From NCBI RefSeq assembly GCF_022846255.1, contig NZ_AP025682.1: a DNA stretch of 64,000 nt; one strand, 5' to 3'. Below are positions 12,957 to 15,168 of the stretch, in pieces. Below the pieces are notes generated by a model. It searched no databases. It worked only from the letters and a program-made list of their open reading frames with translations, and was not told where the DNA came from. Position 1 is the first letter of the stretch; each line of letters begins with the position of its first letter. The position numbers were made by a program, and so were the translations under genes. Source of the stretch: Escherichia coli. Lineage in GTDB: Bacteria > Pseudomonadota > Gammaproteobacteria > Enterobacterales > Enterobacteriaceae.

Positions 12957-13091
12957 ATGGTTCAGTGTGTTCGACATTTTGTCTTACCGCGTCTGAAAAA
13001 AGACGCTGGCCTGCCGTTTTTCTTCCCGTTGATCACCCATTCCCAGCCCCTCAATCGAGGGGCTTTTTTTTGCCCAGGCGTCAGGAGATAA
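12957..13091 (+). CDS. pyrL: pyrBI operon leader peptide
   Basis: 44-codon ORF MVQCVRHFVLPRLKKDAGLPFFFPLITHSQPLNRGAFFCPGVRR overlapping the attenuator hairpin. Confidence 0.92.
   Translation: MVQCVRHFVLPRLKKDAGLPFFFPLITHSQPLNRGAFFCPGVRR
13045..13071 (+). terminator. pyrBI attenuator (rho-independent terminator inside pyrL)
   Basis: agcccctcaatcgaggggct hairpin followed by T8 run, 24 bp before pyrB ATG. Confidence 0.9.
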
Positions 13092-14042: not shown

Positions 14043-14504
14043 ATGACACACGATAATAAATTGCAGGTTGAAGCTATTAAACGCGGCACGGTAATTGACC
14101 ATATCCCCGCCCAGATCGGTTTTAAGCTGTTGAGTCTGTTCAAGTTGACCGAAACAGATCAGCGCATCACCATTGGTCTGAATTTGCCTTCTGGCGAGAT
14201 GGGGCGCAAGGATCTGATCAAAATCGAAAATACCTTTTTAAGTGAGGATCAGGTTGATCAGCTGGCGTTATATGCACCGCAAGCCACGGTTAACCGTATC
14301 GACAACTATGAAGTGGTTGGCAAATCGCGCCCCAGTCTGCCAGAGCACATCGACAATGTGCTGGTCTGCCCGAACAGCAACTGTATCAGCCATGCCGAAC
14401 CGGTTTCATCCAGCTTTGCCGTGCGAAAACGCGCCAATGATATCGCGCTCAAATGCAAATACTGTGAAAAAGAGTTTTCTCATAATGTGGTGCTGGCCAA
14501 TTAA
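14043..14504 (+). CDS. pyrI: Aspartate carbamoyltransferase regulatory subunit
   Basis: 153-aa ORF with C-terminal Zn-binding cysteines (CPNSNC...CKYCEKEF). Confidence 0.96.
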
Positions 14505-14521
14505 TTGCGGTTGGTAATAAA

Positions 14522-14554
14522 AGTCTGGCTCCCTATAATGAGCCAGACTTTTTA
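14522..14554 (+). terminator. pyrBI rho-independent terminator
   Basis: Perfect 10-bp stem agtctggctc/gagccagact, 8-nt loop, TTTTT tail. Confidence 0.88.
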
Positions 14555-14576
14555 CCGCTGTAATAAAGGAGAAATC

Positions 14577-14963
14577 ATGAGCAAAACTATCGCGACGGAA
14601 AATGCACCGGCAGCTATCGGTCCTTACGTGCAGGGCGTTGATCTGGGCAATATGATTATCACTTCCGGTCAGATCCCGGTAAACCCGAAAACGGGCGAAG
14701 TCCCGGCAGATGTCGCTGCACAGGCGCGTCAGTCGCTGGATAACGTAAAAGCGATCGTCGAAGCCGCTGGCCTGAAAGTGGGCGATATCGTTAAAACCAC
14801 CGTGTTTGTGAAAGATCTGAACGACTTCGCAACCGTTAATGCTACCTACGAAGCCTTCTTCACCGAACACAACGCCACCTTCCCGGCACGTTCTTGCGTT
14901 GAAGTTGCCCGTCTGCCGAAAGACGTGAAGATTGAGATCGAAGCGATCGCTGTTCGTCGCTAA
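14577..14963 (+). CDS. ridA: 2-iminobutanoate/2-iminopropanoate deaminase RidA (YjgF)
   Basis: 128 aa from ATG at 14577 with AAGGAG RBS; MSKTIATENAPAAIGPYVQG... Confidence 0.93.
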   Translation: MSKTIATENAPAAIGPYVQGVDLGNMIITSGQIPVNPKTGEVPADVAAQARQSLDNVKAIVEAAGLKVGDIVKTTVFVKDLNDFATVNATYEAFFTEHNATFPARSCVEVARLPKDVKIEIEAIAVRR

Positions 14964-15020
14964 TCTTGATGGAAATCCGGGCTATCATGCCCGGATTAAG
15001 TCTAATGACAAACGCAAAAT

Positions 15021-15110
15021 TGCCTGATGCGCTACGCTTATCAGGCCTACGTGATTCCTGCAATTTATTGAATTTGTAGGCCTGATAAGGCATTTACGCC
15101 GCATCCGGCA
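15021..15110. repeat. REP elements
   Basis: tgcctgatgcgctacgcttatcaggcctac and gtaggcctgataaggc...gcatccggca. Confidence 0.75.
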
Positions 15111-15168
15111 TGAACAAAGCTCACTTTGTCTGCAATCTGATTCCGGGCCACCATGCCCAGTTTATTCT

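Follow-up and report, generated by a model that had tools for sequence, protein, structure and literature searches.

The 72 nt between pyrI and ridA in Escherichia coli (positions 14505-14576 of the window, by which is meant the whole stretch of 64,000 nucleotides analysed, from contig NZ_AP025682.1 of assembly GCF_022846255.1) raise the question of how so short a gap accommodates the end of the pyrLBI operon and the start of the next gene, and whether the two depend on each other. The answer that we consider highly likely is that a sigma-70 promoter for ridA (TTGGTA, 17 bp, TATAAT) is superimposed on the inverted repeat that closes pyrLBI. The gap, which follows directly on the last base of the pyrI stop codon at 14504, is base-for-base identical to that of E. 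coli K-12 MG1655, so that published MG1655 data are directly applicable to the window; positions convert as MG1655 = 4485490 - window position, the region lying on the minus strand in MG1655. The product of ridA is a widespread enamine/imine deaminase; mgtA lies on the opposite strand, convergent with pyrI-ridA. The features of the junction are collected in Table 1.

Table 1. Features of the pyrI-ridA junction, in window coordinates.
Feature	Position	Strand	Basis
pyrI CDS (regulatory subunit of aspartate carbamoyltransferase; final gene of pyrLBI)	14043..14504	+	ORF list; RefSeq annotation under 99.7% match; MG1655 annotation
Whole extended structure; outer helix GCGGT (14507-14511) with ACCGC (14554-14558)	14505..14563	+	Minimum-free-energy fold
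-35 hexamer TTGGTA of the ridA sigma-70 promoter	14511..14516	+	Sequence, consensus scan; within published -35 box CGGTTGGTA
5' arm of the inverted repeat, AAAGTCTGGCTC, within the promoter spacer	14520..14531	+	Fold; covariation
Loop CCTATAAT	14532..14539	+	TATAAT forms 6 of 8 loop bases
-10 hexamer TATAAT of the ridA promoter	14534..14539	+	Sequence, scan; published box CCTATAAT; invariant alignment columns
3' arm GAGCCAGACTTT, then TT; also discriminator and first transcribed ridA bases	14540..14551	+	Fold; start-site position
ridA transcription start region	14544..14547	+	5' RACE end 14544; purines 14545-14547 expected from usual sigma-70 spacing
T5 run, U-tract of the predicted pyrBI intrinsic terminator	14549..14553	+	Sequence; terminator scoring of orthologues
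ridA Shine-Dalgarno AAGGAG	14566..14571	+	Sequence; ATG at 14577
ridA (formerly yjgF) CDS, 128 aa	14577..14963	+	ORF list, RefSeq and MG1655 annotation; downstream of pyrI in 77/80 Enterobacteriaceae loci

The hexamers match the sigma-70 consensus at four of six positions (-35) and at all six (-10), with a spacer of exactly 17 bp, and in a consensus scan the site is the top promoter-like match across 12-17 kb (10/12); re-reading of the sequence confirmed every coordinate that a first-pass annotation had given for TTGGTA, the 17-bp spacer, TATAAT and AAGGAG. Matches of this quality are not rare (the 64-kb window has three, where dinucleotide shuffles yield 8.5 +/- 3.1), and the chance of one on the correct strand, given a 72-nt gap, is 72 x 8.5/128000, or about 0.005. 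It is thus position, conservation and a mapped 5' end, not the hexamer score, that raise the ridA site above chance. Two variants of the element were rejected: an extended -10, since -15/-14 is not TG (the bases there read CTCCCTATAAT), and an alternative -10 at 14559-14564 (TGTAAT), which has no usable -35 and would place the start inside the Shine-Dalgarno.

The ridA promoter with these exact boxes is already known, and has been public since 2009: directed 5' RACE placed a 5' end of yjgF (= ridA, b4243) at position -33 relative to the ATG (Mendoza-Vargas et al., 2009, PLoS One 4:e7526, PMC2760140, Table S1). The corresponding row (ID B4243, evidence 'DMTSS 5' RACE', elements '10/35_S70') gives the -10 box as gctcCCTATAATgagc (score 4.17) and the -35 box as attgCGGTTGGTAataa (score 3.12); the primer for b4243 sits inside ridA (PMC2760140). 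The DNA is identical, with the same -10 CCTATAAT and -35 CGGTTGGTA, and the element itself is no different; Table S1 is silent on the -10 box lying in the loop of the pyrI-distal hairpin. Full-text literature searches returned no discussion of this -10-in-loop geometry, or of a described ridA/yjgF promoter or pyrI terminator, and the geometry and its conservation may be undescribed, a small addition to the record. The Mendoza-Vargas data set of 2009 is said to have been incorporated into RegulonDB.

Mapped onto the window through the MG1655 identity, the -33 end falls on 14544, 5 nt past the -10 box; the start that had been predicted from the sequence, near 14546, is 2 nt away. Sigma-70 promoters usually start 6-8 nt after the -10 box; the reported distance is slightly shorter than this, within the method's stated error. 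The 5' RACE as performed did not test for a 5' triphosphate, and its positions may be a few bases off (PMC2760140). The true start is probably one of the purines 14545-14547, and the 5' end is presumably primary. As in sigma-70 promoters generally, a -10 near TATAAT and a -35 near TTGACA at 16-18 bp are followed by a 5' end just downstream; the mapped end contradicts an origin of ridA transcripts by read-through only, the outcome that the first-pass annotation had named as speaking against its promoter. The parts of the supplements covered here from Ettwiller 2016 (Cappable-seq), ROSE 2023, Yan 2018 (SMRT-Cappable-seq) and Kim 2012 contain no entry for ridA/yjgF or its coordinates, which is not evidence of absence; yjgF is not named in the main text of Shimada 2014, a study of constitutive RpoD promoters.

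An end that lies within the 3' arm of a stable stem, obtained by a method blind to the difference between primary and processed ends, might instead mark where reverse transcriptase halted on read-through RNA or where an RNase cleaved it, with no promoter present and TATAAT kept for some reason at the RNA level. The comparison of orthologous gaps makes this very improbable. A PyrI scan with one genome per species yielded 80 Enterobacteriaceae loci, in 77 of which ridA follows pyrI; with the window, this gives 78 gaps, 75 with TATAAT and the remaining three with TATACT. Outside Escherichia the exact hexamer is found in 69 of 72 loci (TATACT in the other three), against about 2.6% expected from the four-fold degenerate sites of pyrI and ridA in these 72 loci, whose identity to the window is 0.544. 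When 34 sequences are aligned across the 36 nt that surround the box, no column other than the six of TATAAT is invariant, and this only invariant block is the sigma-70 -10 consensus. The -35 is conserved as TTGGTA or TTGGTT, 16-17 bp from the -10, in 45 of the 72 non-Escherichia loci, and is lost where a repeat has been inserted. TATAAT stays joined to the downstream block and to ridA despite a 126-bp repeat directly upstream (loci L013, L017, L019, L044, L045), and likewise where the upstream portion of the gap is unrelated (L059, L060, L070-L081); over the whole set, it persists with the 5' arm moved by 126 bp or absent in L007, L013, L017, L019, L044, L045, L060 and L076-L081, which speaks against retention for an RNA-level reason. 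Terminator loops are usually the least conserved part of their hairpins; here the -10-like loop is the best-conserved part of the gap, and this, together with the 5' RACE end, makes it very likely that the ridA promoter is real. On the existence of a ridA promoter with these hexamers the first-pass annotation is thus borne out, by the mapped end and by a -10 that is nearly invariant across Enterobacteriaceae. The Shine-Dalgarno is kept as AGGAG in most orthologous gaps and as TGGAG in a minority; L060 and L064 have CAGGAAAC.

The placement of the -10 inside a hairpin loop, also claimed from the sequence, holds equally: TATAAT supplies six of the eight loop bases of a real, covarying inverted repeat. 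RNA of 14505-14580 folds at -31.2 kcal/mol (z = -6.4), and none of 200 shuffles folds as well; judged by eye, other genera retain the outer helix only in part. From genus to genus the arms differ and yet remain complementary (GTCTGGCTC/GAGCCAGAC, CCCGGC/GCCGGG, GCCTGCC/GGCAGGC, CCGCGC/GCGCGG, CCTGGTC/GACCAGG), all eight stem pairs varying on both sides, with G-U type pairs present in the alignment. The alignment scores 0.302 for covariation, where shuffles give 0.159 +/- 0.024 (0/500 as high), and the score is higher in the true register than in registers slid by 1-3 columns. Where arms were permuted between lineages, with one representative per distinct 3' arm (22 arms), native pairs had a mean of -11.25 kcal/mol and permuted ones of -7.19 +/- 0.57, with no equal among 10000 permutations. 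Such covariation shows that base pairing is selected, and speaks against a protein operator. Rfam returned no known RNA family at the hairpin.

The palindrome is nevertheless centred on the -10 box, and its folding energies show no difference between the strands, as would suit an operator bound by a dimeric repressor, or a cruciform, controlling the ridA promoter. We give this reading hardly any weight. An operator is rejected because the arms change freely between genera with only their complementarity kept, a signature of base pairing and not of protein recognition, and because G-U type pairs occur. A cruciform is rejected because the stems, at 6-9 bp, are too short and the loops, at 8-11 nt, too long: such structures are too weak to extrude. 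The equal energies leave the strand of the selected RNA undecided, and the position of the start restricts where it can come from: since ridA transcripts begin inside the 3' arm, both arms occur together only in RNA from upstream, that is from pyrBI, or in antisense RNA. Within Escherichia the hairpin appears to be under weaker constraint than the promoter, as the variant sequences suggest: three of the four variant gaps (L003, L004, L006) carry uncompensated stem substitutions, equivalent to 14524-14542, with the -35 and -10 intact, and a predicted stability of only -10 to -13 kcal/mol, down from -20.6.

Whether the hairpin deserves the name of pyrBI terminator, under which the first-pass annotation introduced it, is less clear. 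In its favour, the E. coli core stem has 9 bp (12 with A-U pairs), a predicted energy of -15.3 kcal/mol and an 8-nt loop, and the T5 run that follows has a T-score of 3.75; against it, the overall score is marginal and Term-seq lists no 3' end here. The score is that of a hairpin-plus-T-tract discriminant, reportedly due to d'Aubenton Carafa et al. in 1990. The E. coli hairpin scores about +8 on this discriminant, of which only relative values are meaningful here; on the same relative scale E. albertii, E. whittamii and one E. coli variant with uncompensated stem changes score -11 to -31, and other genera from about -9 (L068) to -108, their stems being followed by tails such as AACATTCT in place of a U-tract. 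Judged by sequence, the U-tract needed for a canonical terminator is essentially confined to Escherichia, which is a caution to those who use the customary name. A separate terminator scan did not list the pyrI-ridA hairpin, we infer because the maximal stem takes up part of the T-run.

In the Term-seq lists no 3' end is found at 4470920-4470949, the hairpin U-tract, although ends of ridA and pyrL are present: strong ridA 3' ends at 4470490/1 (window about 14999) appear in three lists, and a pyrL end at 4472452 (Adams 2021). This is a weak negative, as full-length pyrBI mRNA may have been under the threshold of the study. When UTP and CTP accumulate, yjgF is, according to a tiling-array experiment, 'very much downregulated' along with carA, upp, pyrB and pyrI (Lee et al., 2014); the evidence consists of one sentence on one such experiment, and its simplest reading suggests that pyrBI read-through makes up a sizeable part of the ridA mRNA present in minimal medium. 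Termination of pyrBI transcription by the hairpin in E. coli, and the amount that passes it, can thus be stated only as a likelihood: the label is reasonable there on its stem and T-run, and the terminator is probably leaky.

The same observations can be read as a hairpin that acts mainly as an intercistronic stem-loop in a co-transcript of pyrLBI and ridA, where it would stabilise the 3' end of pyrBI mRNA or form a barrier to its processing, with the promoter internal to that longer unit. The arms covary in all genera, the U-tract is missing outside Escherichia and the score is above zero only for E. coli-type sequences; the loop of 8-11 nt is large for a terminator, pyrI and ridA are adjacent in 77 of 80 loci, yjgF drops with pyrB and pyrI upon UTP and CTP accumulation, and Term-seq has no 3' end at the hairpin. 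The last point cuts both ways, as a stabilising 3' hairpin should itself leave a detectable 3' end and the lists contain none; further, the E. coli stem with its T5 (and A4 on the other side) resembles a canonical terminator, and the co-regulation comes from a single sentence on a single tiling array. We regard this reading as a tentative possibility for the locus as a whole. Outside Escherichia the conserved stem must, to judge by its sequence, have another role than canonical termination, which might be to protect or process 3' ends.

The first-pass annotation had gone further, and proposed that the same DNA can either form the terminator or serve as promoter, each excluding the other, which would insulate ridA from pyrBI while keeping it expressed. 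The -10, the discriminator and the start do overlap the hairpin and T-run physically, with the overlap kept across genera, and a polymerase terminating at 14552-14556 should, by known footprints, be unable to occupy the DNA together with promoter-bound holoenzyme. However, a terminator hairpin forms in nascent pyrBI RNA and a promoter is recognised in double-stranded DNA, which leaves no structural choice between the two at the level of the DNA; between a terminating and an initiating polymerase only a brief steric clash is expected, as in any close tandem pair, and such interference is generic to tandem units and small at low pyrBI flux. Insulation is doubtful as well: the score is marginal in E. 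coli, the hairpin does not score as a terminator in E. albertii, E. whittamii or any other genus, canonical features being absent outside Escherichia, no Term-seq 3' end is recorded, and yjgF falls with pyrB and pyrI. A switch of this kind is therefore very unlikely, and the claims of exclusivity and insulation are not supported.

The best-supported reading, to which we return, is that two ordinary signals occupy a single stretch of 45 bp. Transcripts from pyrBI would contain both arms and in E. coli could form a hairpin of 9-12 bp followed by U5, in the form of an intrinsic terminator, probably leaky. Transcripts from the ridA promoter would begin within the 3' arm, have no 5' arm and form no hairpin; given a start inside the 3' arm, ridA's own transcript cannot be terminated by the hairpin. 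Their leader would be short and unstructured, about 31-33 nt to the AAGGAG ribosome-binding site, and the leader from the ridA start is in fact no more structured than its shuffles (z = +1.2). Expression of ridA would then be the sum of its own, probably constitutive, promoter and a variable read-through from pyrBI. The promoter is real and ordinary. With its own conserved promoter ridA is not simply the last gene of pyrLBI, a point of little significance beyond annotation; the locus is a textbook-style case, with an invariant -10 in a covarying stem and two signals in 45 bp that survive repeat insertions, and it opens no new question.

Three known arrangements invite comparison. With canonical intrinsic terminators, including two-way ones, the E. 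coli hairpin shares a G+C-rich stem with T5 directly after it and A4 before it, 16 nt past the stop codon (the A4 run could, by its sequence, allow action in both directions); it differs in the 8-nt loop, which is due to the -10 box inside, in the marginal score, in the lack of a mapped 3' end, and in a stem that is kept elsewhere without a U-tract. Internal or secondary promoters of operons suggest themselves for the dual supply from an own promoter and upstream read-through; here, unlike in those, a hairpin with terminator features stands between the units, and the share of read-through is uncertain. At the junction of frd and ampC in E. coli, which Grundstrom and Jaurin reportedly described in 1982, the end of the frd operon overlaps ampC, and the ampC promoter is said to lie upstream of a shared hairpin, which thereby also attenuates ampC. 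The two junctions are alike in that the end of one unit and the start of the next share a few dozen bp with one hairpin between them; they differ in that ridA starts inside the 3' arm, so that its transcripts escape the hairpin entirely.

Throughout Enterobacteriaceae, covarying arms are maintained exactly on either side of the ridA -10, even without a U-tract, and for this reason the superposition might itself be selected, with pyrBI 3'-end formation and ridA initiation functionally coupled. Polymerase released or stalled at the hairpin might re-initiate at the overlapping promoter or, in Escherichia only, the T5 at +4 to +10 of the ridA transcript might make initiation sensitive to UTP; either route, if true, would explain the co-regulation of yjgF with the pyrimidine genes without read-through. 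We think coupling quite improbable. For the second route, UTP-sensitive reiterative initiation at T5 is unlikely, as the known cases have their run at +2 to +4 and PMC12709180 contains no mention of ridA.

Several features of the surrounding sequence deserve mention. The pyrL attenuator hairpin, AGCCCCTCAATCGAGGGGCT followed by T8 (13045-13074, plus strand), was detected by the terminator scan; the Term-seq end within pyrL, 57 nt before pyrB, lies upstream of it (4472452; Adams 2021). The 3' end of ridA at about 14999 comes after a stem of ATCCGGGC and GCCCGGAT without a U-tract (window 14975-14999), and just past it, at 15012-15123, are REP-type repeats with sub-threshold Rfam matches (ES036, naRNA4). 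On the other strand, the Rho-dependence table obtained with bicyclomycin contains a site antisense to pyrI, at window position about 14492 (minus strand; MG1655 4470998, plus strand), just beyond the hairpin (Adams 2021); antisense transcripts, possibly read-through from mgtA, thus cross ridA and the hairpin.

The leader of ridA contains a block, TTACCGCTGTAAT(A/T)(A/C)AGGAG (window 14552-14571), that is conserved in most genera almost like coding sequence; this appears to exceed what a Shine-Dalgarno needs, and the block might be a candidate regulatory or translation-enhancing site. In L009, L033 (Salmonella), L043 and L053 the presumed ridA 5' leader holds an extra perfect hairpin of about 35 nt, GGCTGCATC...GATGCAGCC, after TATAAT and before the conserved TTACCGCTG block; the same place is taken by G+C-rich inserts, about 60-105 nt long, in Klebsiella, Raoultella and some related loci (L010, L028, L036, L047, L050, L055, L061).

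The repeat found directly 5' of TATAAT, inside the hairpin loop (...CCCGGCTCCC[126 bp]TATAATGGCCGGG), is a dispersed element of about 126 bp in several Citrobacter, Lelliottia and related genomes; in each of the five loci that carry it (L013, L017, L019, L044, L045) it lies at about positions 3000-3160 of the locus, and remnants are seen in L007 and L053. It displaces the -35 box and yet regenerates GTGTATAAT. The insert of L019 has full-length matches (positions 3-128, about 76% identity) at a median of three places per E. coli genome in 4999 genomes, and by its sequence the repeat looks like an ERIC/IRU element (unit about 127 bp, with many intergenic enterobacterial copies). Finally, RidA-type genes appear to flank pyrLBI on either side: the ORF upstream of pyrL, yjgH (12197-12676, plus strand), is annotated in MG1655 as a RutC-family protein, and RutC is, by the title of a cited reference, a member of the YjgF/RidA family.
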